From Escherichia coli (GTDB taxonomy: Bacteria > Pseudomonadota > Gammaproteobacteria > Enterobacterales > Enterobacteriaceae): a stretch of DNA of 64,000 nucleotides. The notes below the pieces were generated by a model, which was not told the DNA's origin, searched no databases, and was given only the letters and a program-made list of their open reading frames with translations. The translations under genes and the position numbers were made by a program. The DNA lies in the NCBI RefSeq assembly GCF_030384885.1, contig NZ_CP128613.1; one strand, 5' to 3'. The number at the start of each line of letters is the position of its first letter. Positions within the stretch are counted from its first letter, which is position 1. Shown here piece after piece: positions 16,560 through 45,553 of the stretch.

Positions 16560-17138
16560 TTAACGCGTTCGCTGCGAAAGCACCTGCTGCTTATCCAGCT
16601 TTTTCACCAACGGCTGCACCACTTTATCGCCATGCTGACCAAAATATTGATACAACGTATCGGACGCGCTTTTGGTGAGCACCATAATCTCAATGCGCCG
16701 ATTGCCCGCGCTTTGTGGATTTTTGGCATCCAGCAGCATCTGGTCCGCCATTGCGCTCACCCGCGCTTCGCCCTGTAACACCGGCTGCAACTGGCGGTCC
16801 ACCGCGCCGCCGGAAAGTGCGGTGCGTTTGTCCAGCATCTGCGTGAGCGCCGTACCCTGCGCCTGCCCGCTCTTACGCTGGCTATGACGATAATCGAGCA
16901 ATTGCTGCTCCAGTTGCCCGAGATAGTGATCCGCCTGCTGCAACGTGGTGAGCTGATCGTTAAGCTGCACGCTGTAACGCTGCGGGCGAGTGGTAATCAG
17001 CGGCGAGGCCGGATATTCACTCGCCGTCGCCGGGAGCTTTTGCCGCACCGCCTGAGTGGGCGCAACGGTTGACGACGATACCGCAGCGCTATGCGCGCCG
17101 CCGGTGGCGAGTGATGAAGATGTAAGTCCGACCTGCAT
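16560..17138 (-). pseudogene. lafU: Remnant of lateral-flagellar MotB-like gene (lafU); only the C-terminal OmpA-like tail is recognisable
   Basis: 192-aa ORF ending ...AKNPQSAGNRRIEIMVL (OmpA/MotB tail) but N-terminal region low-complexity with no TM anchor; sits between lfgL and dinB where the laf cluster would be. Confidence 0.4.
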
Positions 17139-17154
17139 ACTGTTCCTGAAAGAG

Positions 17155-18108
17155 TTAGAGAACGCTGAACAAATTCAACTCACTCACCTTCGAGTAAGTC
17201 TTGAGGGTAGCTTCCATTGCCACTTCCAGTCCGGTAAAGGTGATCGACGCCGGGCCGTAATCGAGATCCTGCAATGAACCAATCAACTCATCATTAGAGG
17301 TAGAGATATCGGTCTGCGCATCGCTCAGCATCGACATGGTGTTTTGTGTCTCGCCGAGCGACGCAATCGAGGCGTTGAGGTCGTCCGAGGCGGTGTCCAC
17401 CACATTAACGGCGTTTTGAATATCGCTTTGTACCTGCGGATCTGCCGGGTCAACGTTAGGGTTTTGCAACTCCTGCGACAGGGCATTGAGCGTGTTGAGC
17501 ACATCTAAATTGCTGCCAAAGAAATCGCTCGCCGCCACGTTGGTGTCTACTTCGACGCCGTTCGACACCGTAGTCTGGCGATGGTCGCTGTTACCCTGAT
17601 AGCTGTAGCGATCGGTCACGCCATCACCGTCATCGTCCACCGCCACAATCGGCGGTTGATCGTTGATAGTGCCGCCAAAGACGTAATGCCCGTCTTCATC
17701 CTGATAGTTGAGCGCCGCCACCATCGATTCGGTTAGCGACTCAATATCCTGACCGAGGCTTGCCAGCGAATCGGCGGTATTGGTGCCGTTCGCTGCTTCC
17801 AGCAGGTCGTCGCGCACCGCCAGCAGGCTGTTGTTGACGCCATCAAGAATGGATTCCTGCTGGCTTAAGCCCGCCGACGCGGAGTCGATATTGCTCTGAT
17901 ACTGCTCAATCGCCGACTGCTGGCGGTTCAACTGGGTGATACGTGTGGCGGCGATAGGATCATCCGATGGCTGCAAAATTTCCTTGCCGGTTGCCATCTG
18001 CTCGACCACGTGCGCCAGTTCGCCAGAAAGATTATTAAAACTTTGCGTCATCGAGACGTAGGTTTGTTGGGTGGTTACTCGCATTTTCGCGCTCCCGCTT
18101 AGCTGCAC
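17155..18108 (-). CDS. lfgL: Flagellar hook-associated protein 3 (FlgL homologue), Flag-2
   Basis: 317 aa, flagellin-like N/C termini; follows lfgK. Confidence 0.8.
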   Translation of the reverse strand: MQLSGSAKMRVTTQQTYVSMTQSFNNLSGELAHVVEQMATGKEILQPSDDPIAATRITQLNRQQSAIEQYQSNIDSASAGLSQQESILDGVNNSLLAVRDDLLEAANGTNTADSLASLGQDIESLTESMVAALNYQDEDGHYVFGGTINDQPPIVAVDDDGDGVTDRYSYQGNSDHRQTTVSNGVEVDTNVAASDFFGSNLDVLNTLNALSQELQNPNVDPADPQVQSDIQNAVNVVDTASDDLNASIASLGETQNTMSMLSDAQTDISTSNDELIGSLQDLDYGPASITFTGLEVAMEATLKTYSKVSELNLFSVL

Positions 18109-19475
18109 ATTTCCAGCACCGAATCAAAAATCTCGGCCCCGGCGGAAATGACTTTCAGATTGGCTTCATAAATTTGTTGATAGGTGATCAGGTTCACCGC
18201 CTCTTCGTCCATGCTGACGCCGCTGACGCTGCTCTGCTGGTTTTGCGCCTCAGAATAGACATTGGACGCAGCGGTCACTTCGGTCTGGTTTTGCTGAGTG
18301 TAAATGCCAATATTGCTGATGATCGACGAGCACGCTTGCCCGACCGTCACGCTGCCGAGGTTGGCTATCTCCAGCGGCTCAGTGGAGATGTTGATCAGCG
18401 CCTGCAGGTTGTCGCTGTTGCCGCTTTCGTCCGGCGAACTGGAGAACGCCAGTTCATCGGCGGTGATATCCGGGTTAACGGTCAGCGGGCCATCGGCATT
18501 ACTGGCATCGTAAATAAACAGCGGCTCGCCGGGGTTACCGTTGAGATCATAGCCCTGCGCCAGCTGATTGTTGACCGCATCGGCGAACTGCGACGCCATG
18601 CTGTTGATGGTGTCGGTCAGCGGCGTCAGCACGTCGTTTTGATAATCAAAAAGTGCGCCTAATGAACCGCCGGTATCGGTGGTCATGGTCGAGGTCGTTC
18701 CGGCAAAGGTCAGTGTCATCGTTGGCGTGCCATCGGCGTTGGTTTCCAGCGCGATGGTCGAACTTTGCTGCCCGCTCACCAGCGGCTGACCGTTTTGCAG
18801 GGTGACGTTGTAGTTGCCCTGGTCGTCGATATTGACCTGCACATCCATCATTCCGCTGAGTTCTTCCACCATCTGATCACGAGCGTCATACAGCGCGGAG
18901 GCGTTATCACCGTTGGCTTCGGCCTGGGCGATTTGCTGGTTATAGCTGGCGATGCCGCTGGTGAGCGTATTGATTTGCGACACCATCGCCTGCTGCTGGC
19001 TGATGATTTCTGTGCTTTGCGAGTCGATGTAATCGAGCGTGTTATCGATACGCAACGACAGCGCCCCGGCTTCGCTGATCACCTGCTCGCGCAGGGCAGA
19101 ATCATCGGGGCTGGTGGTCGCTTCGTTGAGGGCCGCGAAAAAGTTATCGAACCCGCCGCTCAGGCTACTGTTATCGTCGCTCAATACCGCTTCCAGTTGC
19201 GTGAGATACCCTTGCTGGGTGTTGTAATAGCCGTAATCGCTGGCGGCATACCACACCTGATTCACCTGATACTGGTTGGAGACGCGACGAATGCTGTCCA
19301 CCTGTACACCGTTTCCGGCGCTGTTCGGCGAACCGCCGCTGGCACCGATGGTGCTGATCTCCGCCACCTGGCGGGTGTAGCCCGTGGTCATGGCGTTAGC
19401 GGTGTTTTGCGCCGTGACGTTCAGCTCCACCTGCGCCGTTGATGCGCCGCTGTAGCCGATGTTAATCATGTCCAT
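18099..19475 (-). CDS. lfgK: Flagellar hook-associated protein 1 (FlgK homologue), Flag-2
   Basis: 458 aa, MDMINIGYSGASTAQVELNVTAQNTANAMTTGYTRQ... and conserved C-terminus. Confidence 0.85.
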   Translation of the reverse strand: MDMINIGYSGASTAQVELNVTAQNTANAMTTGYTRQVAEISTIGASGGSPNSAGNGVQVDSIRRVSNQYQVNQVWYAASDYGYYNTQQGYLTQLEAVLSDDNSSLSGGFDNFFAALNEATTSPDDSALREQVISEAGALSLRIDNTLDYIDSQSTEIISQQQAMVSQINTLTSGIASYNQQIAQAEANGDNASALYDARDQMVEELSGMMDVQVNIDDQGNYNVTLQNGQPLVSGQQSSTIALETNADGTPTMTLTFAGTTSTMTTDTGGSLGALFDYQNDVLTPLTDTINSMASQFADAVNNQLAQGYDLNGNPGEPLFIYDASNADGPLTVNPDITADELAFSSSPDESGNSDNLQALINISTEPLEIANLGSVTVGQACSSIISNIGIYTQQNQTEVTAASNVYSEAQNQQSSVSGVSMDEEAVNLITYQQIYEANLKVISAGAEIFDSVLEMCS

Positions 19476-19544
19476 GTTGGATCCTTACCGGTAAATCGTG
19501 CCGGATAAAAGCGGCGTGAAGTTGGGGATTCTTAAGTTCCGTAA

Positions 19545-19885
<341 letters not shown>

Positions 19886-19896
19886 ACGTCGGAGCC

Positions 19897-20196
19897 TCAT
19901 TTATGCTTCGGCGACAACTGCTTCACAATCATCGCCGCGATCCCTATCCCGTGCTGCTGCGCCAGGGTGTTACACAACTCATCGTCATAAAACCCCTGCA
20001 TCATGCGCACCGAATCGCTGTTAAATGGGTTATCTTTCGAATCAAACAACTCGTTGGTTTTACGCATCTCTTTCAGCATGTTGCGTAAAAAAATCGCCTC
20101 AAACTGTTCGGCGGCCTGCTTAATATCATTGGCCTGAACCTTCGGCCCCATTAACGCATCGCTGCCGTCAATCCCGCCGCTGGCGTTGACTTTCAT
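19897..20196 (-). CDS. lfgJ: FlgJ-like rod-binding protein (N-terminal domain only, no muramidase domain), Flag-2
   Basis: 99 aa, ...AAEQFEAIFLRNMLKEMRKT...; position after flgI. Confidence 0.75.
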   Translation of the reverse strand: MKVNASGGIDGSDALMGPKVQANDIKQAAEQFEAIFLRNMLKEMRKTNELFDSKDNPFNSDSVRMMQGFYDDELCNTLAQQHGIGIAAMIVKQLSPKHK

Positions 20197-21311
20197 CAGA
20201 TCACCTCCAGGTCGGCATCCAGCGCGCCCGCTTCATGCAGCGCCTGCAAAATCGACATAATGTCGTCCGGCGTTGCGCCTAAACTGTTCAGCGCATTGAC
20301 CAGCGTTTTCAGGCTGCTCGACTCCGGCAAACTCACCACGCCCGGACGGGCATGATTCACCGCGATATTGCTCTGCGGCGTTACCGCCGTACGCCCGCCC
20401 GCAAAGGCATTCGGCTGGCTGACGTTGCTGGTTTCGTTAATTGAGACGGTCAGGCTGCCGTGCGACACCGCCGCCGCGTGCAGCGCGATGCCATCGCCCA
20501 TCACCACCGTACCGGTACGCGAGTTAAACACCACGCGGGCGCGGATTTTCTCCGCCTGCACCTGCACATCATCCAGTTGCGACATAAACGCCACCCGCGC
20601 GCCGGGGCTGGTGGGCGCACGCACGGTGACGTTGGTGGAACTCTGCGCCGTGGCAATGCCGCCAAACGAAGCGTTGATCGCCGCCGCAATGTTGTTGGCG
20701 TCTTTAAACGACGGGCGTTTCAGGTTAAGCGTGATGGTGTCGCCCATCTGAAAATCGCTGGGGATTTCGCGCTCCACCGTCGCGCCATTGGGGATTAACC
20801 CGGCGGTCGGCGTATTAACCGTTACGCTCGAGCCGCTGGCCCCGGTGGCATTCATCCCGCCCACCACCACACTTCCCTGCGCCAGGGCATACACTTCGCC
20901 ATCTGCGCCGTGCAACTGGGTCAGCAGCAAGGTGCCGCCGCGAATACTTTTGGCATCGCCAATCGACGAGACGGTGACATCAATAGTCTGCCCACGCGAG
21001 TACATCGGCGGCAACGTGGCGCTCACCGCCACCGCGGCGACGTTTTTCACCTTCGGGTCGATTTTATTTGGCAACTGCACGCCAAACTGGCGCAGCATAT
21101 TGGTGATGGTCTGGTTGGTGAATTTGACCTGGTTTTTATCGCCCGTACCGTCGAGGCCGACCACCAGGCTGTAGCCGACCAGTTGGTTTTCACGCACGCC
21201 CTGTACGTTGACCAGCGACTCCAGCGATTGCGCCAGCGCCACGCCAGGTAGCGCCAGGCTTACGGCTACCATCACCGTTTTTATCCAGTTTTGCATTGCA
21301 CTCTCCGGCAT
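20196..21311 (-). CDS. lfgI: Flagellar P-ring protein (FlgI homologue), Flag-2
   Basis: 371 aa with signal peptide; synteny. Confidence 0.9.
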
Positions 21312-21976
21312 TAAATCGGGAACAGAGGATGGTTAAACAGCCGGGTCAGCCAGCCTGCGGCGTTGGCGTCGCTTAACGCGCCACGTCCGGCATAGGAGAT
21401 ACGGGCGTCGGCGATCCGCTGGGAAGAAACCGAGTTGTCATTCTGGATATCGTCGGCGCGCACCAGGCCGCTTAAGCGGATGTACTCATCGCCCTGATTG
21501 AGGGTGAGCCATTTCTCGCCGCGAATTTCCAGGATGCCGTTGGGCTGCACCGCATGGACGGAAACAGTGATCTCCCCGCGCAGACTGTTCTGCTGCTGGG
21601 ACGTGGCGCTGCCGTCAAAGTCGCGGTTGGCGTCGATGGAGCCGGAGAGGTTATTTTTGGTGTGACCAAATACCGTTGGCGCGGTGATATCGACGCTGTT
21701 GCTTTTGCCGAAATTGGTTTTCGCCTGTTTGCTCGACTGGGTCGATTCTTCGAGGATCACCGTCAGGATATCGCCCACGCGATAAGCCCGCCGATCGGCG
21801 GTTAGCGACCAGTTGTAGCCCGTTTCAAACACGCCCCCGGCACGCCCGTCTGCCGGAGGCGGCGCTTCGGTTTTCGGTGGCGCAAAGTATGCGTCGTCTT
21901 TTTTGACCAGAATGGCCTGCGATTCACACCCGCTAAGCAGGGGAAGCAGCGCCACCAGCCAGAGATAATTTTTCAC
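21311..21976 (-). CDS. lfgH: Flagellar L-ring lipoprotein (FlgH homologue), Flag-2
   Basis: 221 aa, lipobox LLSGC; synteny. Confidence 0.9.
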
Positions 21977-22042
21977 GTTCTGCCTGTTTAGTGTTGCAGG
22001 CCACGGGGTGGCCGGTTGTTTGGTGGGTTGGAGCGGGTTTGT

Positions 22043-22158
22043 TCCCCCTCACCCTAACCCTCTCCCCAAAGGGGCGAGGGGACCGATCGAGCGCGTTTTT
22101 ACATCGTGCTCCACTTTTCTCCCTCTCCCTGTGGGAGAGGGCCGGGGTGAGGGCATCA
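22043..22158. repeat. GC-rich composite palindromic element (boxC/RSA-like), copy 1
   Basis: CCCTCACCCTAACCCTCTCCCCAAAGGGGCGAGGGG ... CTCCCTCTCCCTGTGGGAGAGGGCCGGGGTGAGGG; same family as 29281-29393 (inverted) and 48941-48985. Confidence 0.7.
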
Positions 22159-22179
22159 GGCCGCACCGCCCTTAACGCC

Positions 22180-22968
22180 TTACAGCGTCTGACTGATGTA
22201 CTGCAACATATCGTCCGCCGCCGACACCATTTTGGCGTTCATCTCGTAGGCACGTTGCACCGTAATCATCGCCACCATTTCGTTGACGATATCCACGTTC
22301 GAGCCTTCGAGCGCATTGTCCTGCAAGGTGCCAAGCCCATCTTCGCCCGGTACGCCTTCGGTCGGCTGACCGCTGGCGGCGGTTTCCAGATAGAGGTTGT
22401 CACCCTCGGCAGAAAGCCCCGCCGGGTTGGCGAAGTTGACCAGCGTCAGTTGCCCTAACTCGGTCACGTCGCTGTCGCCAGGTAAGATAGCCGTCACCGT
22501 GCCGTCCTCACCAAACGCAACATTCGTCGCCCCCGCCGGAACGTCGATTTCCGGCTGTAACGGCAAGCCCTGCGAGTTGGTCAGCACGCCGTCGGCGTTC
22601 ACCTGCAAGTTGCCGTCGCGGGTATAGGCGATATCGCCGTTGGCCTTTTGCACCTGCAAAAACCCCTGCCCCATAATGGCGACATTCATCGCGTTGTCGG
22701 TGGTTTCGACGTTGCCTTCGGTAAAGGTTTTCTGAGTGCCGACAATGCGCACGCCGCTACCGAATTGCAGCCCGGTCGGCATGATGTTGTTCTGGTCGAG
22801 CATCGCGCCCGGCGCTTCCTGGGTCTGGTAGAACAGATCCTGAAACATCACCCGGTCGCGCTTGAAGCCGGTGGTGTTAACGTTGGCGATGTTGTTGGCA
22901 ATCGCGCTCATTTCAGCATCCTGCGCCGAGAGGCCGGTTTTGCTGATCCATAATGCTGCGTTCATGGT
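22180..22968 (-). CDS. lfgG: Flagellar distal rod protein (FlgG homologue), Flag-2
   Basis: ORF 22180..23088; likely start MNAALWISKTGLSAQDAEMSAIANNIANVNTTGFKRDR. Confidence 0.9.
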   Translation of the reverse strand, partial: TMNAALWISKTGLSAQDAEMSAIANNIANVNTTGFKRDRVMFQDLFYQTQEAPGAMLDQNNIMPTGLQFGSGVRIVGTQKTFTEGNVETTDNAMNVAIMGQGFLQVQKANGDIAYTRDGNLQVNADGVLTNSQGLPLQPEIDVPAGATNVAFGEDGTVTAILPGDSDVTELGQLTLVNFANPAGLSAEGDNLYLETAASGQPTEGVPGEDGLGTLQDNALEGSNVDIVNEMVAMITVQRAYEMNAKMVSAADDMLQYISQTL

Positions 22969-23000
22969 GGTAAATTCCGTGTTATTTTGGGGCCGCGGTT

Positions 23001-23143
<143 letters not shown>

Positions 23144-23881
23144 TTACGAGCCGCGCAATAAGCGGTTGCCCGCGTCGCTGATATCTTCGGCGGTTTTCAT
23201 CATTTTGATCTGCGCTTCAAACTGGCGGTTCATGGCGATGGACGACATCATTTCGCTCACCGCCGAGACGTTGCTGCCCTCGAGAAAACCGCCGCTGACT
23301 TTGATGTTTTCATCACGCTGGGCCGGAACGCCGTCGCTAGTCACCAGCATCCCTTCAGGATTTTTCGCCAGGTTAGCAACCGGGATATCCACCAGCTTCA
23401 GGCGGTCGATATCCATCGTGGCGGTCACGTCACCGTCATCGGGCGTCACCGACAGCGTGCCGTCGCTGCCAAACGAGGCAATGGCGTTCGGCGGCAGAAT
23501 GATCGGGCCGTTATCCCCCAGTACCAGATTGCCGTCGATGGTCAGTTGCCCCTGATCGTCCTGCTGAATGTTGCCGTTGCGGGTATAAACTTCGTTGCCG
23601 TTTTTATCCTGCACCGCAATGTAACCCGCCCCCTGAATCGCCACGTCCAGCGGGCGTTCGGTTTTCTCCGCCACACCCGTGCTGTCGTTCACGCCGCTGG
23701 CCCCTTCCTGCGCCATATAGCGCGTGTCGAAGCCGCCGCCTTTCACCTTGTCGTTGGTCGCCATCGCCATATCGGCGCGAAAACCGTTGGTGTTGACGTT
23801 CGCCAGGTTGTTGGCGCTAATTTGCTGCTCGTACAACGTCTGAGAAGCCCCGCTCAGGGCGGTATAAATCAAGCGATCCAT
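23144..23881 (-). CDS. lfgF: Flagellar proximal rod protein (FlgF homologue), Flag-2
   Basis: 245 aa, MDRLIYTALSGASQTLYEQQISANNLANVNTNGFR. Confidence 0.9.
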   Translation of the reverse strand: MDRLIYTALSGASQTLYEQQISANNLANVNTNGFRADMAMATNDKVKGGGFDTRYMAQEGASGVNDSTGVAEKTERPLDVAIQGAGYIAVQDKNGNEVYTRNGNIQQDDQGQLTIDGNLVLGDNGPIILPPNAIASFGSDGTLSVTPDDGDVTATMDIDRLKLVDIPVANLAKNPEGMLVTSDGVPAQRDENIKVSGGFLEGSNVSAVSEMMSSIAMNRQFEAQIKMMKTAEDISDAGNRLLRGS

Positions 23882-25083
23882 TACATTGCCTGGAACAGCG
23901 CGTCATCGAGCTGTGTGCTGGTGGCGATAACTTTGGTGTTGGCCTGATAGTTACGCTGGGCGGTCATCAGGTTAACCAGTTCGCTGGTGATATCGACGTT
24001 AGAGCTTTCGAGCACACCGGACGACAGCGTGCCGCAGGTGCCGGAGCCGGGAACGCCAATCAGTGGCGTGCCGGATTCCCCGGTTTGTACCCATGCGGTG
24101 CCGCTCACTGCCTCCAGGCCGTTTTCATTCGGGAAAGTCGCCAGCACCACTTGGCCCTGCAACATGCGCTCGCCGTTGCTGTAGGTGGCGTAAACTTTGC
24201 CATCGTCATCAACCTGCACACCGTTTTGCGTGGCGGAAGCGTAACCGTTGGCGGAGTTGGTGGTGACAGAAAATTCAGAACCGTATTGCGTACAGGTGGA
24301 GTAATCGACGGTCAAATCGATGGGCGCGGCGGCGTCGGTCTGAAACTCAATGGTCTGCGGCGTAGTTGGCGAGGTCAGTTTTCCGGTATTCGGGTCGAAG
24401 GTTAAGGTCGTCGCCGGAACACCAGTCTGCTGCTGACCGTCGAAGGTGTACTGCACTTCCCAGGTGTTATCGCTGGTTTTGGTGAAGTACTGGCATACCG
24501 AGTGTTCGTTACCTAATGAGTCATACACCGTGGTGGTGTAGCTGTCGGTGTACGAACTGCTGTTGGTCGGATCGAACGGCACGGTAGTGCGGTCGATAGC
24601 GTCGTCACTGGCATCGAAGTTGGCGGTAAAGGTCAGGCTGCTGCTGGCCTGCGCCGGGATATTGCCGGTTTTGATCTGGATATCCGTCACCGTACCGGTT
24701 TGCAAAGTGCCGCTGTCATCGACCGGATAGCCCTGCAAATAAGCGCCCGAGGCGTTAACGATATAGCCGTCTTTGTCCGTTTCAAACGATCCGGCGCGGG
24801 TATAAGAGATGTTGCCTGCGCTGTCGCACATCACAAAAAAGCCGTCGTCGTTAATCGCCAGATCCAGCGCATTACCGGTGGAGACCAGCGAACCGCCGCG
24901 CGAAATACTTTGCGCGGTGCCCGCCACGCTGACGCCCATTGCCTGGCTTCCGGCATACATGGCTGAAAACTGGGTAGTCATCGACTTATACCCCACCGTT
25001 CCGGCGTTAGCGATGTTGTTACTGATCCCGTCCAGCTGTTCGTTAACGGCATTCAGCCCCGTTGCGGCAATTTCATAACTCAT
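23881..25083 (-). CDS. lfgE: Flagellar hook protein (FlgE homologue), Flag-2
   Basis: 400 aa, MSYEIAATGLNAVNEQLDGISNNIANAGTVGYK... Confidence 0.9.
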   Translation of the reverse strand: MSYEIAATGLNAVNEQLDGISNNIANAGTVGYKSMTTQFSAMYAGSQAMGVSVAGTAQSISRGGSLVSTGNALDLAINDDGFFVMCDSAGNISYTRAGSFETDKDGYIVNASGAYLQGYPVDDSGTLQTGTVTDIQIKTGNIPAQASSSLTFTANFDASDDAIDRTTVPFDPTNSSSYTDSYTTTVYDSLGNEHSVCQYFTKTSDNTWEVQYTFDGQQQTGVPATTLTFDPNTGKLTSPTTPQTIEFQTDAAAPIDLTVDYSTCTQYGSEFSVTTNSANGYASATQNGVQVDDDGKVYATYSNGERMLQGQVVLATFPNENGLEAVSGTAWVQTGESGTPLIGVPGSGTCGTLSSGVLESSNVDITSELVNLMTAQRNYQANTKVIATSTQLDDALFQAM

Positions 25084-25106
25084 TGTTTCTTCCTGTTAAT
25101 TGATTC

Positions 25107-25820
25107 TTACGCCACATCACTGTCGGCATCGGGTACGCCAAACTGGCTAATCATGGTGAACGGCACTTCGCCCACACCTGCAACGTTGAGCACCGGAGAG
25201 CTGCCGTCGAGCGGGATACGTACATCCTCCACTTCGCCGGAGACTTCAATCGGTACCTCTTCTTCCCCGGTGTTGGTCACCACCGAAACGTCGTAATCAC
25301 CCGGCGGGATGCCGTAATCCGCCGGATTAATCGAGAAATCAACCTGGCCTGGTCCAACCGACGAACTCCCTTCCGGGATCAGCGAGACGGTGTAGTCATC
25401 GCCCGCGGCATCGGTAAAGTGGAGTTCGGCGGTGGTACAGGCGTCGTCCAGTGTGGCGCGACCGTTAATGGTCTGGTCACTCACCTGCAAGGCGGTGGTC
25501 TGCACCATAATGTCGTCGCCCACCAGGTTGCCGAGCGCCATCACCTGAATGTTGCTCATCAGCACCGCGTTGGTATTGGCCTGCACGCTCATCTCTTCCA
25601 TCATCGCCACCTGCGCCATCGACGAAAGCTGGTCGATATATTCGGTGGCATCGGTCGGGTCGGTCGGGTCCTGGTTTTGGATCTCGGCGACAAACAGCGT
25701 CAGGAAAGTATCGACGGGCGAGCTATCGCTGCTGCTTGTCGTGTCGCTGGCCGCCACGTTGTTGCTTTCCGCCGTGGCGGTCGGCTGCGGCGATTGCGCA
25801 TTCAGCGCCAGGGTATTCAT
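25107..25820 (-). CDS. lfgD: Flagellar hook capping/assembly protein (FlgD homologue), Flag-2
   Basis: 237 aa; synteny between flgC and flgE. Confidence 0.8.
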   Translation of the reverse strand: MNTLALNAQSPQPTATAESNNVAASDTTSSSDSSPVDTFLTLFVAEIQNQDPTDPTDATEYIDQLSSMAQVAMMEEMSVQANTNAVLMSNIQVMALGNLVGDDIMVQTTALQVSDQTINGRATLDDACTTAELHFTDAAGDDYTVSLIPEGSSSVGPGQVDFSINPADYGIPPGDYDVSVVTNTGEEEVPIEVSGEVEDVRIPLDGSSPVLNVAGVGEVPFTMISQFGVPDADSDVA

Positions 25821-26251: not shown

Positions 26252-26253
26252 GC

Positions 26254-26619: not shown

Positions 26620-26649
26620 ACGCTAAGCAATCGCTGTGCCAATTTTTAA

Positions 26650-27408: not shown

Positions 27409-27488
27409 TTTACGCAGGCGATTAAAGTTTTGCCGCCTGTTAACCGCTTTACCGGAGTAACACACCTTCAAACAGAGACGAGGTTGCG

Positions 27489-27764: not shown

Positions 27765-27776
27765 GAGGCCGATGAA

Positions 27777-32909: not shown

Positions 32910-32911
32910 AG

Positions 32912-34952: not shown

Positions 34953-34955
34953 GGG

Positions 34956-37590: not shown

Positions 37591-37594
37591 AGGG

Positions 37595-37936
37595 TTAGAT
37601 CGACATACTCATCAGATCGTTAAATCCGGTGGCGATTTTGTTGCGCACCTGCACCAGCGCGGAGAAAGAGAGCGACGCCTGCTGGCTGGCGATCATCGCC
37701 CCGGCGAGGTCATCACTTTTGCCCGTGTCGACAGCCGTTTGCTGCTGCTCCGCCACCTGCTGGAACTGGTCAACGTGACCGAGCGCGCCGAACATAATAC
37801 GGTTAAACGACACGTCCGGGTCGGTGGAACTGAAGGTCATGGCGGGTAGCACTGGCGCCTGGGCGTTGGCCTGCATCCGCTGCACGTCCTGCATAATTTG
37901 CGCCTGCATGGTGCTGTTGATTGTGGTAATGCTCAT
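37595..37936 (-). CDS. lfiE: Flagellar hook-basal body protein (FliE homologue), Flag-2
   Basis: ORF 37595..38158; likely start MSITTINSTMQAQIMQDVQRMQ (about 113 aa). Confidence 0.8.
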   Translation of the reverse strand: MSITTINSTMQAQIMQDVQRMQANAQAPVLPAMTFSSTDPDVSFNRIMFGALGHVDQFQQVAEQQQTAVDTGKSDDLAGAMIASQQASLSFSALVQVRNKIATGFNDLMSMSI

Positions 37937-37950
37937 TTTTAACTTCCGGG

Positions 37951-38937
37951 TCAGGAGAAAACTTCGATACCGTGCTTGCGCATGGAGGCCAGTCGATAGC
38001 GCAGGGCACGTGGGGTAATGCCTAACAGGTCGGCGATTTTGCTGCGGTTGCCCTGATATTTGCGCATCAGGTCGGCGATATATTGATACTGCGCGCTTCG
38101 TCCGTGCTGGCCTAAATCGCCGGTTTCGGCAATGTGGACGGCGGGCTGAACAGGCCATTGCAGTTCACTGTGGTCAGCAATATCGGTGTCCGGCAGGCCT
38201 AATGCATCCGGGTAAATTACGCCGTCGCGATTTAAAATCATTCCCCGCTGAATGGCGTTTTCCAGTTGGCGCACGTTACCGGGCCAGCGGTAATTAAGCA
38301 GCGCACGGCGGGTGGATTCGGACAGGGTGATATTTTTCACCAGCACCGTGGAGTATTTTTTAATAAATGACTCTGCCAGCGGAATAATATCGTTCAGGCG
38401 TTCACGCAGTGGCGGCATGGTAATAGGGATAACCGCCAGACGATAATAGAGATCTTCACGAAAACGTCCGGCGGCAACTTCCTGCTCCAGGTTTTTATTG
38501 GTGCAGGCAATCAGGCGAAAATTGAGTTTGATTTGTCGGTTACTGCCTAATCGCTCAACCTGTTGTTCCTGCAATACGCGTAATATTTTGGCCTGTAGCG
38601 CCAGCGGCATTTCACCAATTTCATCGAGTAATAAGGTGCCGTTATTTGCCAGTTCCATTTTTCCTGGCACGCTGGCAATTGCGCCGGTAAATGCACCTTT
38701 GTCGTAGCCAAATAACGTCGATTCCAGCATATTTTCCGGGATCGCCGCGCAGTTCACGCCGATATAGGGCGCATTATCATTTTCACCAAAGGCTACGGTG
38801 TGAATATACTTCGCCACGCACTCTTTCCCCGCGCCGGTTTCGCCCTGAATCAGGACCGGCACGTTAAAGGCGGCGACACGCTTTGCCAGAGTAAAAGCGT
38901 TAATGCTGGAGGCGGCAGATGCAATAAGTTCAGACAT
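37951..38937 (-). CDS. lafK: Sigma-54-dependent transcriptional activator, AAA+ and HTH only, no receiver domain (LafK-like)
   Basis: 328 aa: Walker A GETGAGKE, GAFTGA sigma-54 contact motif, C-terminal Fis-type HTH; ORF begins directly at the AAA+ domain. Confidence 0.85.
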   Translation of the reverse strand: MSELIASAASSINAFTLAKRVAAFNVPVLIQGETGAGKECVAKYIHTVAFGENDNAPYIGVNCAAIPENMLESTLFGYDKGAFTGAIASVPGKMELANNGTLLLDEIGEMPLALQAKILRVLQEQQVERLGSNRQIKLNFRLIACTNKNLEQEVAAGRFREDLYYRLAVIPITMPPLRERLNDIIPLAESFIKKYSTVLVKNITLSESTRRALLNYRWPGNVRQLENAIQRGMILNRDGVIYPDALGLPDTDIADHSELQWPVQPAVHIAETGDLGQHGRSAQYQYIADLMRKYQGNRSKIADLLGITPRALRYRLASMRKHGIEVFS

Positions 38938-39323: not shown

Positions 39324-40175
39324 ATGCTGAAGTACAGTAAAACGCCAGGCATCTTTAAATTAGAAGGTAATCGGCTCGGACGCCCCTACCATCGCCTGCC
39401 GACCCTGTTTACGGGGAATTTTGACGTGATTGATTCGCATCTTGGCAGCTACTTTCTCAAAAAGCATCGCAGCAATATCACTTTAAAAAAGATTGGTTGC
39501 GAAATGGATATTATTAATAAAAACGCCGAGTTGATGGTTTCCCAGGTCGGGCATCTGGCGTTTGATATTGATCGTTCCTTATTGTTAATGCTGCTGGGTA
39601 ATTTTTATGGTCTGGAATCGTCTCTTGAAGAGGCGAAAGCGCATAACGGCCTACCGACCAAAACCGAAACACGATTAAAGAACCGACTCGCGCTGGATAT
39701 CTGCACGCTGATATTTAATCTGCAAACCTCCGGTATTGCACTGAAATTAAAACTGGACAGCAGCACAGTGATTACCCACTGGGCGTATCAATTAACCTTT
39801 ACCCTCGCGGGCGATGAAGAGAGCCGTTTTCGTATTTTGCTCGACGATGCCCACACCGATTTTATTTTAAATCTGATCCGCCACAGTGAGCACAGTAAAC
39901 CGCAGCAGGTGGCGAAATCCGTCAACAAGCCGGCACTGATTAAAGAGATCATCCGCTCCCTGCCGTTGACCCTGAACGTCAAAATCGCCGAGCTGTCGAT
40001 GAATGTTGCCGATCTGGCGCAGGTAAAAGCCGGAGATATTTTACCCATCTCGCTGGGAGAAACGTTCCCGGTGGCGATTGGGCAATCTGAATTATTTAGC
40101 GCCCTGATAGTGGAAGACAAAGACAAACTGTTTTTGTCGGAGCTGGCGGGCAAAAATGAGAATAGCCATGAGTAA
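39324..40175 (+). CDS. lfiM: Flagellar motor switch protein (FliM-like), Flag-2
   Basis: 283 aa with C-terminal SpoA-like segment (LAQVKAGDILPISL); followed by the FliN homologue. Confidence 0.7.
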   Translation: MLKYSKTPGIFKLEGNRLGRPYHRLPTLFTGNFDVIDSHLGSYFLKKHRSNITLKKIGCEMDIINKNAELMVSQVGHLAFDIDRSLLLMLLGNFYGLESSLEEAKAHNGLPTKTETRLKNRLALDICTLIFNLQTSGIALKLKLDSSTVITHWAYQLTFTLAGDEESRFRILLDDAHTDFILNLIRHSEHSKPQQVAKSVNKPALIKEIIRSLPLTLNVKIAELSMNVADLAQVKAGDILPISLGETFPVAIGQSELFSALIVEDKDKLFLSELAGKNENSHE

Positions 40176-40539
40176 GCAAGAAGATATTTTAGCCGGGGAT
40201 TTTGGCCTCACCGATGACGTTGCGCCTGTCACGAAATCCGCCGACGCCGAAACGCTGGTCACCCGCCTGGAGGACCGTTTTTCCGACTCGATGACGCTGC
40301 TGAAACGCATTCCGGTGACCTTAACGCTGGAAGTCTCCTCGGTGGAAATCATGTTAGCCGACCTGCTGAACATCGACGATGACACGGTGATTGAACTGGA
40401 TAAACTCGCCGGGGAGCCGCTGGATATCAAAGTGAACAATATCCTGCTGGGCAAAGCGGAAGTGGTAGTGGTCAACGAGAAGTACGGCCTGCGCGTGCTG
40501 GAGTTTAACACCCGCGATATCAACGACCTGGCGCCATGA
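40156..40539 (+). CDS. lfiN: Flagellar motor switch protein (FliN homologue), Flag-2
   Basis: 127 aa SpoA domain (VTLTLEVSSVEIMLADLLNIDDDTVIELDKLAGEPLDI). Confidence 0.85.
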   Translation: MRIAMSKQEDILAGDFGLTDDVAPVTKSADAETLVTRLEDRFSDSMTLLKRIPVTLTLEVSSVEIMLADLLNIDDDTVIELDKLAGEPLDIKVNNILLGKAEVVVVNEKYGLRVLEFNTRDINDLAP

Positions 40540-41288
40540 AACGCCGCACTCAACTGACGCTGGGCCTGGCGCTGCTGGCGCTCGCGCCGCTGGCATTAGC
40601 CCAGGGCGGCGATATTGCGCTGCTTAATGTGGTCACTCACGGCAACACTCAGGAGTACAGCGTCAAAATTCAGGTACTGATTCTGATGACCCTCGTCGGT
40701 TTGTTGCCGACGATGGTGCTGATGATGACCTGCTTTACGCGCTTTATTATCGTGCTTTCACTACTGCGCCAGGCGCTGGGGCTGCAACAAACGCCGCCAA
40801 ACCGCATTCTGATTGGCATTGCGCTCTCCCTCACCCTGCTGGTGATGCGCCCTGTCTGGCTGAATATTTACGACCACGCGGTGGTGCCGTTCGAAAACGA
40901 TCAGATTACCCTGACCGATGCGTTAAGCACCGCCGCGACGCCGCTGAAACGCTTTATGCTGGCGCAGACCGACAAAAAAGCGATGGCGCAAATCATGACC
41001 ATCGGCGGCGCAAAGGGCAATGCCGCCGACCAGGATCTCTCCATCGTGGTGCCCGCCTATGTGCTGAGCGAACTGAAAACCGCTTTCCAGATTGGCTTTA
41101 TGATTTACATCCCGTTTCTGGTTATCGACCTGATTGTCGCCAGCGTATTGATGGCGATGGGGATGATGATGCTGTCGCCGCTGATCGTTTCGCTGCCCTT
41201 TAAGCTGATGCTGTTTGTGCTGATCGACGGCTGGTCGTTGACCATCGGCACGCTCACCACCAGCATTCGCGGACTGGGGCTGGGCTGA
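40536..41288 (+). CDS. lfiP: Flagellar export apparatus protein (FliP homologue), Flag-2
   Basis: 250 aa polytopic membrane protein; overlapping start/stop with neighbours. Confidence 0.9.
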   Translation: MKRRTQLTLGLALLALAPLALAQGGDIALLNVVTHGNTQEYSVKIQVLILMTLVGLLPTMVLMMTCFTRFIIVLSLLRQALGLQQTPPNRILIGIALSLTLLVMRPVWLNIYDHAVVPFENDQITLTDALSTAATPLKRFMLAQTDKKAMAQIMTIGGAKGNAADQDLSIVVPAYVLSELKTAFQIGFMIYIPFLVIDLIVASVLMAMGMMMLSPLIVSLPFKLMLFVLIDGWSLTIGTLTTSIRGLGLG

Positions 41289-41290
41289 TT

Positions 41291-41563
41291 ATGCTGACCG
41301 TTGACGTAGCCGCCGACATTGTCGCCAGCGGCATAAAAGTGGTGATTTTACTGGTTTCGGTACTGGTGGTGCCAAGCCTGCTCGTTGGCCTGCTGGTGAG
41401 CGTGTTCCAGGCGGTGACGCAGATTAACGAACAGACCCTGAGCTTTTTGCCGAGGCTGATTGTCACGCTGGTGGTGCTGGGGATATGCGGCAAATGGATG
41501 ATTACCCAGTTGCATGACCTGTGCATTCACCTGTTTAGCCAGGCCGCGTTGCTGGTGCATTAA
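41291..41563 (+). CDS. lfiQ: Flagellar export apparatus protein (FliQ homologue), Flag-2
   Basis: 90 aa, two TM segments. Confidence 0.85.
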   Translation: MLTVDVAADIVASGIKVVILLVSVLVVPSLLVGLLVSVFQAVTQINEQTLSFLPRLIVTLVVLGICGKWMITQLHDLCIHLFSQAALLVH

Positions 41564-41564
41564 G

Positions 41565-42347
41565 ATGCGCACAAGCGACGTTACGCAACTGACGGATCTG
41601 GCGCTGGGGCTGTGGTTTCCCTTCGTGCGCATTATGGCGTTTCTGCGCTATGTGCCGGTGCTGGATAACAGCGCCCTGACTATGCGCGTGCGGATTATTT
41701 TGTCGCTGGCGCTGGCAATCATCATCACGCCGTTGATCCCCCATCCCATTCCGCATGATTTGCTCTCGCTCAACAGTTTGATCCTGACGGTGGAGCAAAT
41801 CTTATGGGGCATGTTATTCGGGCTGATGTTTCAGTTTCTGTTTCTGGCGCTGCAACTCGCCGGGCAAATTCTCTCGTTCAATATGGGGATGAGCATGGCG
41901 GTGATGAACGACCCGAGCAGCGGCGCATCGACCACCGTGCTGGCGGAGCTTATCAACGTCTACGCGATCCTGCTGTTTTTTGCCATGGACGGGCATCTGT
42001 TGCTGGTGAGCGTGTTGTACAAGGGCTTCACCTACTGGCCGATTGGCAACGCGCTGCATCCGCAAACCCTGCGCACCATTGCGCTGGCCTTTAGCTGGGT
42101 GCTGGCGTCCGCATCGCTGCTTGCGCTGCCGACCACTTTTATCATGCTGATTGTGCAGGGCTGCTTTGGCCTGCTCAACCGCATTGCGCCGCCGCTGAAT
42201 CTCTTTTCACTTGGCTTTCCCATCAACATGCTGGCAGGGCTGGTCTGCTTTGCCACCCTGCTCTACAACCTGCCGGATCACTATCTGCATATGGCGAATT
42301 TTGTGTTGCAGCAGCTCGACGCGCTGAAAGGTCACTATGGCGGATAG
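41565..42347 (+). CDS. lfiR: Flagellar export apparatus protein (FliR homologue), Flag-2
   Basis: ORF 41514..42347; likely start MRTSDVTQLTDLALGLWFPF at about 41565. Confidence 0.85.
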   Translation: MRTSDVTQLTDLALGLWFPFVRIMAFLRYVPVLDNSALTMRVRIILSLALAIIITPLIPHPIPHDLLSLNSLILTVEQILWGMLFGLMFQFLFLALQLAGQILSFNMGMSMAVMNDPSSGASTTVLAELINVYAILLFFAMDGHLLLVSVLYKGFTYWPIGNALHPQTLRTIALAFSWVLASASLLALPTTFIMLIVQGCFGLLNRIAPPLNLFSLGFPINMLAGLVCFATLLYNLPDHYLHMANFVLQQLDALKGHYGG

Positions 42348-43476
42348 CAGCAGCGAAGAAAAAACAGAGAAACCCTCGGCGCAAAAGCTGCGTAAAGCGC
42401 GTGAAGAGGGACAACTGCCGCGCTCAAAGGATATAGGGCTGGCGGCGAGCCTGTTTGCGGCGTTTGTGGTGATCTCCAGCAGCTTCCCGTGGTATGCCGA
42501 TTTTGTACGCGAGAGTTTTATCAGCGTGCATCAGTACGCGCAGGAGATTAATAACCCGGAGGTGATCGGCCAGTTTCTGCGCCATCACCTGTTAATTCTC
42601 GGCAAGTTTATTCTCACCTTGCTACCGATGCCCGCCGCCGCGCTGCTCTCTTCGCTGGTGCCCGGTGGCTGGCTGTTCTTGCCAAAAAAAATCCTCCCGG
42701 ATTTCAGCAAAATCAGTCCGTTAAAAGGGATTGGGCGGCTGTTCTCCAGTGAACATCTTGCGGAAACAGGCAAGATGACGGCGAAGTCGGTGGTGGTGCT
42801 GGTGATGCTGTGGATTAGCCTGCGCAATAACTTTGCCGCCTTCCTCGGCCTGCAAGCGCTGCCGTTCAAACTGGCGATGAATGAGGGTTTGTCGCTCTAC
42901 GCCAGCGTGATGCGCAACTTTGTCATCCTGTTTATTTTCTTCGCGCTTATCGACGTGCCGCTGGCGAAAGCCCTGTTCACCAAAGGGCTGAAGATGACTA
43001 AGCAGGAGCTGAAAGAAGAGTACAAAAATCAGGAAGGCAAGCCGGAAGTGAAGGCGCGCGTGCGGCGGCTGCAACGGCAACTGGCGATGGGGCAAATTCG
43101 CAAAGTGGTGCCGAAAGCCAACGTGGTGATCACCAACCCGACCCACTACGCCGTGGCGTTGCAGTATGACCAGTCACGCGCCGCCGCGCCGTTTGTGGTG
43201 GCAAAAGGTACCGATGAAATCGCCCTCTATATTCGTCAGGTCGCCACTGAAAATCAGGTGGAAGTGGTCGAGTTCCCGCGACTGGCGCGCTCGGTTTACT
43301 ACACCACCCAGGTGAATCAGCAAATTCCGTTTCAGCTTTACCGGGCCATCGCCCACGTTCTGACCTACGTCCTGCAAATGAAACACTGGCGCGACGGCGC
43401 ACAGCCGCGCCCGGCTCTGAACAGACATATTTCCATTCCCAAAGAGGTGCTTAAACTGGATGGCGAAAACAACTAA
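42337..43476 (+). CDS. lfhB: Flagellar export apparatus switch protein (FlhB homologue), Flag-2
   Basis: 379 aa with NPTH autocleavage motif (VVITNPTHYAVAL). Confidence 0.9.
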   Translation: MADSSSEEKTEKPSAQKLRKAREEGQLPRSKDIGLAASLFAAFVVISSSFPWYADFVRESFISVHQYAQEINNPEVIGQFLRHHLLILGKFILTLLPMPAAALLSSLVPGGWLFLPKKILPDFSKISPLKGIGRLFSSEHLAETGKMTAKSVVVLVMLWISLRNNFAAFLGLQALPFKLAMNEGLSLYASVMRNFVILFIFFALIDVPLAKALFTKGLKMTKQELKEEYKNQEGKPEVKARVRRLQRQLAMGQIRKVVPKANVVITNPTHYAVALQYDQSRAAAPFVVAKGTDEIALYIRQVATENQVEVVEFPRLARSVYYTTQVNQQIPFQLYRAIAHVLTYVLQMKHWRDGAQPRPALNRHISIPKEVLKLDGENN

Positions 43477-45553
43477 ATCGTTCCTCGCGCTACTGCGCGG
43501 CGGCAATCTCGGCGTGCCGCTGGTGATCTTGTGTATTCTGGCGATGGTTATTTTGCCGCTGCCGCCTGCGCTGCTGGATATTCTGTTCACCTTCAACATT
43601 GTGCTGGCGGTGATGGTGCTGCTGGTGGCGGTGTCGGCGAAACGTCCGCTGGAATTCAGCCTGTTCCCGACTATTTTGCTGATCACCACCTTAATGCGCC
43701 TGACGCTTAACGTTGCTTCTACGCGCGTGGTGCTGCTGCACGGGCATCTCGGCGCGGGCGCAGCGGGTAAGGTGATTGAGTCGTTTGGTCAGGTGGTGAT
43801 TGGCGGCAACTTTGTCGTCGGTTTCGTGGTGTTTATCATCCTGATGATCATCAACTTTATTGTCGTCACCAAAGGGGCCGAGCGTATTTCCGAGGTTTCT
43901 GCCCGCTTTACCCTAGACGCGATGCCCGGCAAGCAAATGGCGATTGACGCCGATCTTAACGCCGGGTTGATCAACCAGGCGCAGGCGCAGACCCGCCGCA
44001 AAGATGTTGCCAGCGAGGCCGATTTCTACGGCGCGATGGACGGGGCATCGAAGTTTGTGCGCGGGGATGCCATCGCCGGGATGATGATTCTGGCGATCAA
44101 CCTGATTGGCGGCGTTTGTATCGGGATCTTCAAATACAACCTGAGCGCCGATGCCGCCTTCCAGCAGTATGTGCTGATGACCATCGGTGACGGGCTGGTA
44201 GCGCAGATCCCGTCCCTGCTGCTCTCTACCGCGGCAGCGATTATCGTCACCCGCGTCAGCGACAACGGCGATATCGCCCATGACGTGCGCCATCAGTTGC
44301 TGGCAAGCCCGTCGGTGCTCTACACCGCCACCGGGATTATGTTCGTGCTGGCGGTGGTGCCGGGAATGCCGCACTTCCCGTTCCTGATGTTCAGCGCCTT
44401 GCTTGGCTTTACCGGCTGGCGAATGAGCAAACGCCCGCAGGCGGCGGAGGCGGAAGAGAAAAGCCTCGAAACGCTGACCCGCACAATCACTGAAACCAGC
44501 GAGCAACAGGTCAGTTGGGAAACCATTCCGCTGATCGAGCCCATCAGTTTAAGCCTCGGTTACAAGCTGGTGGCGCTGGTGGACAAAGCGCAGGGCAACC
44601 CGCTCACCCAGCGTATTCGCGGCGTGCGGCAGGTGATTTCCGACGGCAACGGCGTGCTGCTGCCGGAGATCCGTATTCGCGAAAACTTCCGCCTCAAGCC
44701 CAGCCAGTACGCCATTTTCATCAACGGCATTAAGGCTGATGAAGCTGATATTCCGGCGGATAAACTGATGGCGTTGCCCTCCAGCGAAACCTACGGCGAG
44801 ATAGACGGCGTGCTGGGGAACGACCCGGCGTACGGGATGCCGGTCACCTGGATTCAGCCCGCGCAGAAGGCGAAGGCGCTGAATATGGGGTATCAGGTGA
44901 TCGACAGCGCCAGCGTGATTGCTACCCATGTTAATAAGATTGTGCGCAGCTATATTCCTGATTTGTTTAACTATGACGACATCACGCAGTTGCATAACCG
45001 TTTGTCGTCAATGGCACCGCGCCTGGCAGAGGATTTGAGTGCGGCGCTGAATTACAGCCAGTTGCTGAAAGTGTACCGGGCACTACTGACCGAAGGCGTT
45101 TCCCTGCGCGATATCGTCACCATCGCCACCGTGCTGGTCGCCAGTAGCACCGTCACCAAAGATCATATTCTGCTGGCGGCCGATGTGCGCCTGGCACTGC
45201 GGCGCAGCATTACCCATCCGTTCGTTCGCAAGCAGGAGCTGACGGTGTATACGCTGAATAATGAGCTGGAAAACCTGCTGTCCAACGTGGTGAATCAGGC
45301 GCAACAGGCTGGCAAAGTGATGCTCGATAGCGTGCCGGTGGACCCGAATATGCTCAACCAGTTCCAGAACACGATGCCGCAGGTGAAAGAGCAGATGAAA
45401 GCGGCAGGGAAAGACCCGGTGCTGCTGGTGCCGCCGCAGTTGCGCCCTTTGCTGGCGCGTTATGCGAGGTTGTTTGCGCCGGGGTTGCATGTGCTGTCGT
45501 ATAACGAAGTGCCGGACGAGCTGGAGTTGAAGATTATGGGGGCGTTGAGTTGA
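43460..45553 (+). CDS. lfhA: Flagellar export apparatus gate protein (FlhA homologue), Flag-2, full length
   Basis: 697 aa; N-terminal TM domain, conserved FHIPx-like region and cytoplasmic C-domain. Confidence 0.9.
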   Translation: MAKTTKSFLALLRGGNLGVPLVILCILAMVILPLPPALLDILFTFNIVLAVMVLLVAVSAKRPLEFSLFPTILLITTLMRLTLNVASTRVVLLHGHLGAGAAGKVIESFGQVVIGGNFVVGFVVFIILMIINFIVVTKGAERISEVSARFTLDAMPGKQMAIDADLNAGLINQAQAQTRRKDVASEADFYGAMDGASKFVRGDAIAGMMILAINLIGGVCIGIFKYNLSADAAFQQYVLMTIGDGLVAQIPSLLLSTAAAIIVTRVSDNGDIAHDVRHQLLASPSVLYTATGIMFVLAVVPGMPHFPFLMFSALLGFTGWRMSKRPQAAEAEEKSLETLTRTITETSEQQVSWETIPLIEPISLSLGYKLVALVDKAQGNPLTQRIRGVRQVISDGNGVLLPEIRIRENFRLKPSQYAIFINGIKADEADIPADKLMALPSSETYGEIDGVLGNDPAYGMPVTWIQPAQKAKALNMGYQVIDSASVIATHVNKIVRSYIPDLFNYDDITQLHNRLSSMAPRLAEDLSAALNYSQLLKVYRALLTEGVSLRDIVTIATVLVASSTVTKDHILLAADVRLALRRSITHPFVRKQELTVYTLNNELENLLSNVVNQAQQAGKVMLDSVPVDPNMLNQFQNTMPQVKEQMKAAGKDPVLLVPPQLRPLLARYARLFAPGLHVLSYNEVPDELELKIMGALS

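Follow-up and report, generated by a model that had tools for sequence, protein, structure and literature searches.

Flag-2 lateral flagellar loci, which are taken here as complete when all 39 core genes are present, cluster 3 included, are known to be decaying. A survey by De Maayer et al. in 2020 found that 22% of Flag-2 loci are without at least one of the 39 core genes, that whole clusters have been lost en bloc, and that a scar joining lfhA and lafU is present in 13% of Enterobacterales (PMC6993521). Published partial loci have lost cluster 1 (Yersinia enterocolitica) or clusters 2 and 3 (Citrobacter), and large deletions also occur in Flag-2 of Escherichia albertii (PMC11420993). In a panel of bovine Escherichia coli, Flag-2 was either present or wholly absent, with no intermediate forms (PMC5422975), and in strain EC958 of sequence type 131 (ST131) the locus gave no motility and LafA was undetectable (PMC4637896). 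Here, we analysed a 64,000-nt stretch of E. coli DNA (contig NZ_CP128613.1 of assembly GCF_030384885.1; hereafter the window), whose Flag-2 locus retains clusters 1 and 2 whole and has a 579-bp lafW'-'lafU fusion in place of cluster 3. Very probably, this locus has been caught shortly after a single illegitimate-recombination event, and its other 31 genes would be intact because they have had no time to decay, not because they are being kept.

Cluster 3 is reduced to a lafW-lafU fusion

As the annotated complete reference we used the locus of E. coli Ecol_244 (NZ_CP019020.1, L003). The list of open reading frames (ORFs) and the comparison with this reference placed a collinear Flag-2 locus between dinB and hicAB/yafL. 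It forms a single contiguous unit at the dinB/lafU - lfhA/yafL site, the same dinB-yafL site at which the complete loci of the strain 042 type (Ecol_244 and GCA_049984605.1) lie. Clusters 1 and 2 and variable region 1 have the gene order and orientation of the complete locus, and nucleotide identity is 93-95% to Ecol_244 and approximately 99.99% to GCA_049984605.1. The window differs from the complete locus in cluster 3 and in the absence of three hypothetical genes from the variable region of Ecol_244 (L003 29193-31581), which the close relatives of the window (hereafter sisters) do not have either.

Of the 11 genes of cluster 3 (lafWZABCDEFSTU), only nt 1-382 of lafW and the last ~200 nt of lafU are left. 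In blastn against Ecol_244, window positions 14813-16764 correspond to dinB and the last 205 nt of lafU, and positions 16757-19644 to the first 382 nt of lafW followed by lfgL and lfgK. Gone are lafZ, lafA, lafB/fliD, lafC/fliS, lafD, lafE/fliK, lafF/fliL, lafS (sigma-28) and lafT/motA, together with most of lafW and most of lafU. A tblastn search with the 11 cluster-3 proteins detected no further homologue within the 64-kb window. The absence of the cluster between flgL and dinB, which an earlier note on this DNA had reported from the letters and translations, was thus confirmed. That note had also proposed alignment to a complete Flag-2 locus to find the deletion junction; with Ecol_244 and the undeleted, nearly identical loci L031 and L033 as references, the junction was mapped to the base.

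The missing sequence amounts to 9,111 bp and is bounded by a GGTGA copy in lafW and another in lafU. The undeleted relatives L031 and L033 read ...GCGC GGGTGA CCTTT in lafW and ...ATGC AGGTGA GCGCAATGG in lafU, and the window reads ...GCGCGGGTGAGCGCAATGG across the junction, where it keeps the lafW-derived GCGGGTGA (the lafU copy in intact sisters is GCAGGTGA). The match between the two breakpoints is perfect over GGTGA and 7/8 over GCrGGTGA. Both breakpoints are within unique coding sequence, outside repeats, and have just 5-8 bp in common. No insertion sequence (IS), integrase or recombinase gene was found at or near the junction. A short direct repeat at both ends, one remaining copy and no mobile element are the marks of a microhomology-mediated (illegitimate) deletion, and a 9,111-bp deletion between the GGTGA copies in lafW and lafU removed cluster 3 and left a 192-aa chimera.

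This chimera joins LafW 1-127 in frame to residues 243-307 of LafU, the MotB homologue, and starts 16 nt past lfgL. The MotB/OmpA-like tail that the earlier note had seen in a 192-aa ORF is therefore real and derived from LafU; the gap to lfgL, given there as 17 nt, is 16 nt. The tail matches positions 240-297 of the 297-position NCBIfam LafU model with 112.7 bits (cutoff 383), and no significant Pfam domain was found in the fusion protein. Since the transmembrane/plug region of MotB and most of the OmpA-like (peptidoglycan-binding) domain are missing, the chimera is not a stator subunit.

The 31 genes from lfgL to lfhA were translated from the start codons that give the reference length. Each has a single terminal stop, and their lengths are those of Ecol_244 or a few residues off, with the glycosyltransferase off by 11. 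Gene names agree with the Pfam families of identical proteins on sister contigs. Cluster 1 has 14/14 genes at full length (families including FHIPEP, Bac_export_1-3, FliP, Sigma54_activat and YscJ_FliF), as does cluster 2 (lfgNMABCDEFGHIJKL, 14/14), and the FlgK of the window is 100% identical to the protein of genomes with an intact locus. The inventory previously drawn up for the window (FlhAB, FliPQR, FliMN, LafK, FliEFGHIJ, FlgNMA and FlgB-L) therefore holds throughout, with all genes at full length. The genes for the three enzymes of variable region 1 are presumed to serve flagellin modification. They are intact despite the loss of the flagellin gene, which would leave the methylase and the glycosyltransferase with no substrate.

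Comparison with the K-12-type scar and other partial loci

The K-12-type scar resembles the window in that its deletion ends within lafU, beside dinB, and shows short similarity at the breakpoints. In the scar, however, ~37 kb has been removed and 769-772 nt of lafU is joined to the last 1.7 kb of lfhA, whereas in the window 9.1 kb has been removed, 205 nt of lafU is left and clusters 1 and 2 are whole. The window is not a scar of this type: its lfhA (697 aa) is whole and is separated from the lafU remnant by 29 kb of Flag-2 genes. These figures confirm the difference from K-12 that the earlier note had stated. Nor can the window allele have given rise to the K-12-type scar, since part of the lafU sequence kept by the scar is already missing from it.

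Other partial loci (PMC6993521; E. albertii, PMC11420993; E. coli AL.H8) share with the window the loss of one cluster en bloc and the survival of the others. They have other breakpoints, and the deletion in the window involves no transposase. In AL.H8, the late genes (lafT to part of flgK) were lost in an independent event and the basal-body genes are still there; unlike in the window, its lafU is whole and its flgK is truncated.

Age of the deletion

Sister genomes were found by exact-protein look-ups with FlgK, FlgL, LafW and FliF, for which one representative is shown per set of identical neighbours. Exact look-ups with MotA and LafA were too conserved to be of use (LafA alone matched ~50,000 index blocks) and returned ordinary E. 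coli, 95-98% identical. The lineage of the window, whose identity is presumed, carries the NCBI label E. coli. Its proBA-gpt flank differs by ~3.5% from that of most E. coli, and its exact FlhA has the accession EGB71047.1, which we take to come from a strain of cryptic clade I.

Contigs with the identical FlgK had the full cluster 3 after lfgL at 8/8 listed places (23 contigs read), and so did those with the identical FlgL in 4/4 listed groups (23 longest contigs read). The closest intact sister, GCA_049984605.1, has all 11 cluster-3 ORFs intact (11/11). It shows 0 mismatches over window positions 16757-28084 (11,328 bp) and 2 mismatches over positions 25944-47590 (21,647 bp), that is, 2 single-nucleotide polymorphisms (SNPs) in the ~31 kb of retained locus. 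The sisters L009, L033 and L034 each differ from the window by 1 SNP in 10-12.7 kb. Every such SNP is private to the sister, and at these sites the window has the allele common to all others; therefore, the window is without a private substitution across cluster 2 (16757-29475).

One derived SNP is found in cluster 1 of the window, namely L327Q near the C-terminus of LfiG (FliG). The change is present on 11 contigs, which come from at least 5 samples; one of these contigs is 4.74 Mb long, has no recorded fusion ORF and apparently represents a genome with cluster 3 intact. Every other locus examined has Leu. As more samples carry this SNP than carry the deletion, L327Q probably predates the deletion.

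Compared with Ecol_244, the retained genes have a ratio of nonsynonymous to synonymous substitution rates (dN/dS) of 0.058 at dS 0.25, similar to dinB. The low long-term dN/dS and the clean ORFs reflect selection that acted before the deletion. With approximately zero substitutions since that event, the intact ORFs in the remaining 29 kb are uninformative about later selection. For the same reason, too little time for mutations to build up, the absence of multiple inactivating mutations, which the earlier note had named as one test of its proposal, is uninformative here.

Distribution of the deletion allele

HBA5946412.1 is the database entry for the exact fusion protein and the one member of its cluster; the protein is encoded in GCA_017755465.1, on a 77-kb contig, and in the Logan assemblies SRR34489103 and SRR12517544. 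All three datasets match the window at 100% identity over 1.9-6.1 kb. The fusion occurs on ~6 contigs, compared with 110-260 contigs for the exact FlhA, LafK, FlgE, FlgI, FliP and other proteins of the window. A junction-spanning 241-bp query was covered in one piece by 0 of 5,426 complete RefSeq E. coli genomes, and the junction pattern GAAGCGCGGGTGAGYGCAATGGCGGA was unmatched in one genome per GTDB species. The deletion is limited to a small clone; in the other members of the lineage to which this clone belongs, the locus is entire.

Among the 5,426 complete genomes, at least 80% of cluster 1 was present in 1,270 and at least 80% of a cluster-3 core free of repetitive extragenic palindromic (REP) elements in 1,276; the locus has been lost in ~3/4 of E. 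coli genomes (also PMC6993521). A partial cluster-3 core was present in at most ~50 genomes. An apparent set of ~109 complete genomes with cluster 1 and without cluster 3 was rejected, as the query with the REP-free core attributed the gap to variation in lafW, lafZ and REP elements. Loci without cluster 3 are thus rare and scattered, which fits short-lived intermediates.

Other inactivations in the close group

Another close relative, E. coli 2013C-4282 (NZ_CP027579.1, L042), carries a complete K-12-type lfhA'-'lafU scar. Compared with the window, its left flank shows 0 mismatches and one 1-base gap over 12,657 bp, and its right flank 5 true mismatches over 14.8 kb. Because 2013C-4282 keeps lafU sequence that is lost in the window, the two deletions are independent. 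Its scar is made of alleles of its own lineage (99.9% to sisters L031 and L037, ~94% to Ecol_244), and the scar junction is the same as in K-12, with a breakpoint similarity of ATC only, or of 8/11 bases (TGnTGAnnATC). Scars are found on other allelic backgrounds too; for example, that of AVS0970 is 99.9% identical to the Ecol_244 allele. The lfhA'-'lafU scar may have arisen either by recurrent deletion at a hotspot or by spread and homogenisation through recombination.

Four sisters carry nonsense codons in flgK, lafA, lafD and fliH (Table 1). Together with the two deletions, this makes at least 6 independent inactivations in one tight group. A different rearrangement was seen in another E. 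coli contig, L020 (GCA_024331465.1, 1-8028), where recBD-like genes adjoin the 3' part of lafA and lafB through lafU come next; in that locus Flag-2 is broken at the flagellin gene.

The deletion might have been adaptive, the loss of flagellin, sigma-28 and stator genes being selected (as a saving of cost, or the shedding of an antigen or phage receptor) in a lineage in which Flag-2 inactivation is favoured. We regard this as unlikely. The at least 6 independent inactivating events within a very close group speak for it, as does the absence of the locus from ~3/4 of E. coli genomes (PMC6993521). However, nonsense codons in ~4/25 and 2/24 sister contigs, a sample in which the displayed loci are biased towards variants, roughly match, by our estimate, what unpurged neutral tip mutations would give, with a few private SNPs per locus and ~4-5% of random substitutions being nonsense. 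The long-term dN/dS of 0.058 indicates a locus that was maintained until recently, and in EC958, the sole E. coli strain tested, Flag-2 expression was undetectable, so that any cost saved would be small (PMC4637896). We read these inactivations as a sign that Flag-2 is not strongly protected in the close group, and not as proof of selection for its loss.

Promoter motifs and predicted behaviour of the remnant

A perfect sigma-54 consensus (TGGCAC-N5-TTGCT, 11/11 specified bases) lies ~50 bp upstream of lfgB, and a 10/11 sigma-54-like site (CGGCAC-N5-TTGCA) precedes the fliB-like gene; another 10/11 site is found upstream of lafB in intact sisters. A scan at ≥9/11 gave 13 sites against ~17 expected in shuffled sequence, and only the well-placed 11/11 and 10/11 sites were used. 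The motif TWAAGWWT-N11-12-RYCGYTTT is shared by the sequences upstream of lafA (in sisters), lfgK and lfgM, and takes the form TAAAGTTT before lfgM. Its resemblance to sigma-28 promoters is suggestive only, and a scan with the strict E. coli sigma-28 consensus (TAAAG-N14-16-GCCGATAA) gave nothing convincing. No sigma-54 or sigma-28 site was found for lafK-lfiE or lfiM-lfhA.

Should the lfgB operon still be driven by LafK and sigma-54, then the export gate, MS/C ring, rod, P/L rings and hook could assemble. The lack of FliK/LafE would leave the hook without length control and export unable to change over to late substrates. With LafS gone, lfgKL and lfgMN, the genes of the sigma-28 class, would stay off unless they are cross-read by the primary FliA; and without the LafT/LafU stators there would be no torque, with flagellin gone as well. 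These predictions follow from general flagellar biology. The predicted phenotype combines the defects of the well-known fliK (polyhook) and fliA/motAB mutants of the primary flagella of Salmonella and E. coli, in that hook-length control, the late-gene sigma factor, flagellin and stator would all be lacking; those mutants are single-gene laboratory constructs in a primary system, whereas the window has one natural deletion in a secondary system. The earlier description of a complete export apparatus, rod, rings and hook stands as anatomy, but 'complete hook' was an overstatement given that LafE (FliK) is deleted. We infer that the remnant cannot give motility, and at best it could be a stator-less basal body with an uncontrolled hook. 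Most likely, it is a neutral or mildly costly relic heading to the complete loss of which 2013C-4282 shows the end state.

Retention for another purpose, relocation and artefact

The earlier note had left open recent decay or retention for another purpose, and its title spoke of a system retained. Under retention, selection would be maintaining a filament-less, motor-less hook-basal body and type III export gate for some different task, for example protein export or a role as a surface structure. Known models are the flagellin-less basal bodies of Buchnera and the secretion of non-flagellar proteins through flagellar type III secretion systems. All 31 genes, lafK among them, and the perfect lfgB sigma-54 promoter are intact, the deletion takes out almost exactly the late-gene cluster, and the allele is present in three datasets, all of which would suit such a role. 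Yet intactness is uninformative when the window and sisters that have the entire locus are just 0-2 SNPs apart across 11-31 kb. An export apparatus without FliK would be locked in rod/hook mode, the locus offers no candidate cargo genes besides those for flagellin modification, loci without cluster 3 are rare and scattered among the 5,426 genomes and fixed in no lineage, and close relatives are losing Flag-2 in several other ways, complete deletion included. Nor does the locus show a Buchnera-like long persistence of intact basal-body and export genes under purifying selection after flagellin loss, because there are no private SNPs in cluster 2, the sisters keep cluster 3 and the allele is known from 3 datasets. 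We therefore consider retention very unlikely. We give equally little credence to the more specific proposal that a LafK/sigma-54-driven gate, rod, rings and unregulated hook are still assembled and serve as a protein-export or surface organelle; if this were true, the remnant would represent an early stage of a flagellum being repurposed, not lost.

Recent decay, on the other hand, stands: sisters at 0-2 SNPs over 11-31 kb keep cluster 3. Retention as a system is not supported, given that intact ORFs are expected from any deletion so young. The evidence strongly favours recent decay over retention for another purpose.

It is highly improbable that cluster 3 has merely moved, with a lafZ-lafT block elsewhere in the genome and a system that is complete: the junction is a simple short-direct-repeat deletion with one repeat copy left and the truncated genes fused in frame, it has no IS or recombinase genes, and tblastn finds no cluster-3 homologues in the 64-kb window. 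That the junction is an assembly artefact of a collapsed or chimeric contig has a negligible probability, since three datasets that were assembled separately agree at 100% identity in both junction and fusion ORF, and the breakpoints lie in unique coding sequence sharing just 5-8 bp. In favour of an artefact, the source seems to be a draft assembly, with a contig of 77 kb.

Several points weigh against a locus caught shortly after its deletion and now decaying. The lafK gene, the lfgB sigma-54 promoter and every hook-basal-body gene are untouched, and residual activity is possible. Of the three datasets with the allele, one has a far later run number than the others, which means that the clone has persisted and spread at least slightly. 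The look-up favours loci with differing neighbour proteins, so that nonsense mutations of sisters are over-represented. The sigma-28 motif was derived from the same three upstream regions in which it is reported, which makes its 'zero expected' circular. Finally, the search for a second copy of cluster 3 covered the 64-kb window of the genome.

Features of the locus and its flanks

The coordinates of the features are collected in Table 1. Further REP/BIME-like elements (BIME, bacterial interspersed mosaic element) occur in Flag-2 intergenic regions at 22996-23142 and 39061-39164. The copy number of such elements differs among strains, and they inflate BLAST match counts.

Table 1 Features of the window's Flag-2 locus and of inactivated loci in close relatives. 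Positions refer to the window unless another locus is named.
Feature	Locus	Position	Strand	Remarks
dinB	window	15434..16489	-	conserved chromosomal flank, lafU side
LafW-LafU chimeric ORF, 192 aa	window	16560..17138	-	LafW 1-127 + LafU (MotB homologue) 243-307, in frame
Deletion junction	window	16757..16764	.	one GGTGA repeat copy left, vs undeleted L031/L033
Cluster 2: lfgL, K, J, I, H, G, F, E, D, C, B, A, M, N	window	17155-28205
lfgL and lfgK	window	17155..19475	-	hook-filament junction proteins, full length; lfgL 17155-18084, lfgK 18099-19475
Sigma-28-like motif upstream of lfgK	window	19508..19535	-	TTAAGAAT-N12-GCCGCTTT; post hoc motif
REP/BIME-like 118-bp unit between lfgJ and lfgK	window	19569..19884	.	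2.7 tandem copies
lfgBCDEFGHIJ operon	window	19897..26589	-	rod, hook cap, hook, L and P rings, rod-binding protein; all full length
Sigma-54 consensus upstream of lfgB	window	26626..26641	-	perfect match
lfgA, lfgM, lfgN	window	26671..28205	+	P-ring chaperone, anti-sigma-28, FlgK/L chaperone; full length
Sigma-28-like motif upstream of lfgM	window	27423..27450	+	TAAAGTTT-N12-ACCGCTTT; post hoc motif
Sigma-54-like site upstream of fliB-like gene	window	28282..28297	+	10/11
Variable region 1	window	28332-32472		the three enzymes below
FliB-like lysine-N-methylase	window	28332-29261	+
Glycosyltransferase, 823 aa	window	29452-31923	+
Cytidylyltransferase	window	32068-32472	-
Cluster 1: lfiJIHGFE, lafK, lfiMNPQR, lfhBA	window	32475-45553
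lfiEFGHIJ	window	32475..37936	-	MS ring, rotor switch FliG, export ATPase complex; all full length
Derived SNP in LfiG (FliG)	window	34987	-	L327Q, codon 327, near C-terminus
lafK	window	37951..38937	-	sigma-54-dependent activator, full length
lfiMNPQR-lfhBA	window	39324..45553	+	C ring and type III export gate, full length; lfhA 43460-45553
K-12-type scar	L042	13085-15554		equivalent to window 16560-16764 + 43841-45553
flgK with nonsense codon	L034	7664-9040		codon 382
lafA with nonsense codon	L032	12365-13279		codon 213
lafD with nonsense codon	L033	15305-15616		codon 57
fliH with nonsense codon	L038	12639-13349		codon 76

Next to the locus, a hicA/hicB toxin-antitoxin pair lies between lfhA and yafL (45637-46285); it is also present in 2013C-4282, and Ecol_244 has the REP-associated transposase gene rayT at this position. 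On the other side (14985-16489), dinB directly overlaps yafP, and the yafN-yafO toxin-antitoxin pair that lies between dinB and yafP in K-12 and in loci L015 and L021 is absent. An insertion relative to Ecol_244 between pepD and prfH (12034-12925), which encodes a YdjM-like metal-dependent hydrolase and a 93-aa ORF, is found in several other strains as well. At the left end (1-4196), a tyrosine integrase gene (2943-4106) and small unannotated ORFs adjoin tRNA-Thr (4121-4196) beside proA; this island at the thrW site is absent from 2013C-4282.

The right end of the window (53735-62636) contains an ISAs1 transposase gene, a group II intron reverse transcriptase gene and an orphan 330-aa RHS C-terminal fragment. 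Next comes a stretch of low GC content (32-37%), in which an Hcp/TssD gene (59106-59585) lies among unannotated ORFs, and then tRNA-Asp and dnaQ. Identity to 2013C-4282 is 100% from 50000 to 58677 and ends there; past that point, 2013C-4282 has a full RHS-VgrG-Hcp type VI secretion cluster, which is absent from the window.

Implications for Flag-2 decay in Escherichia

The decay of Flag-2 and the existence of partial loci were known already (De Maayer et al. 2020, PMC6993521); what is new is the deletion allele. The paradox of a filament-less basal body vanishes once near-identical sisters with the whole locus are found, and the allele adds one more route of erosion for Flag-2, which is known to be lost or damaged in most Escherichia. 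The close group amounts to a natural allelic series of intact Flag-2, the cluster-3 deletion, a K-12-type scar and four nonsense mutants. This series could be used to address the role of Flag-2 in E. coli, hook-basal bodies without late genes, and the origin of the lfhA'-'lafU scar.

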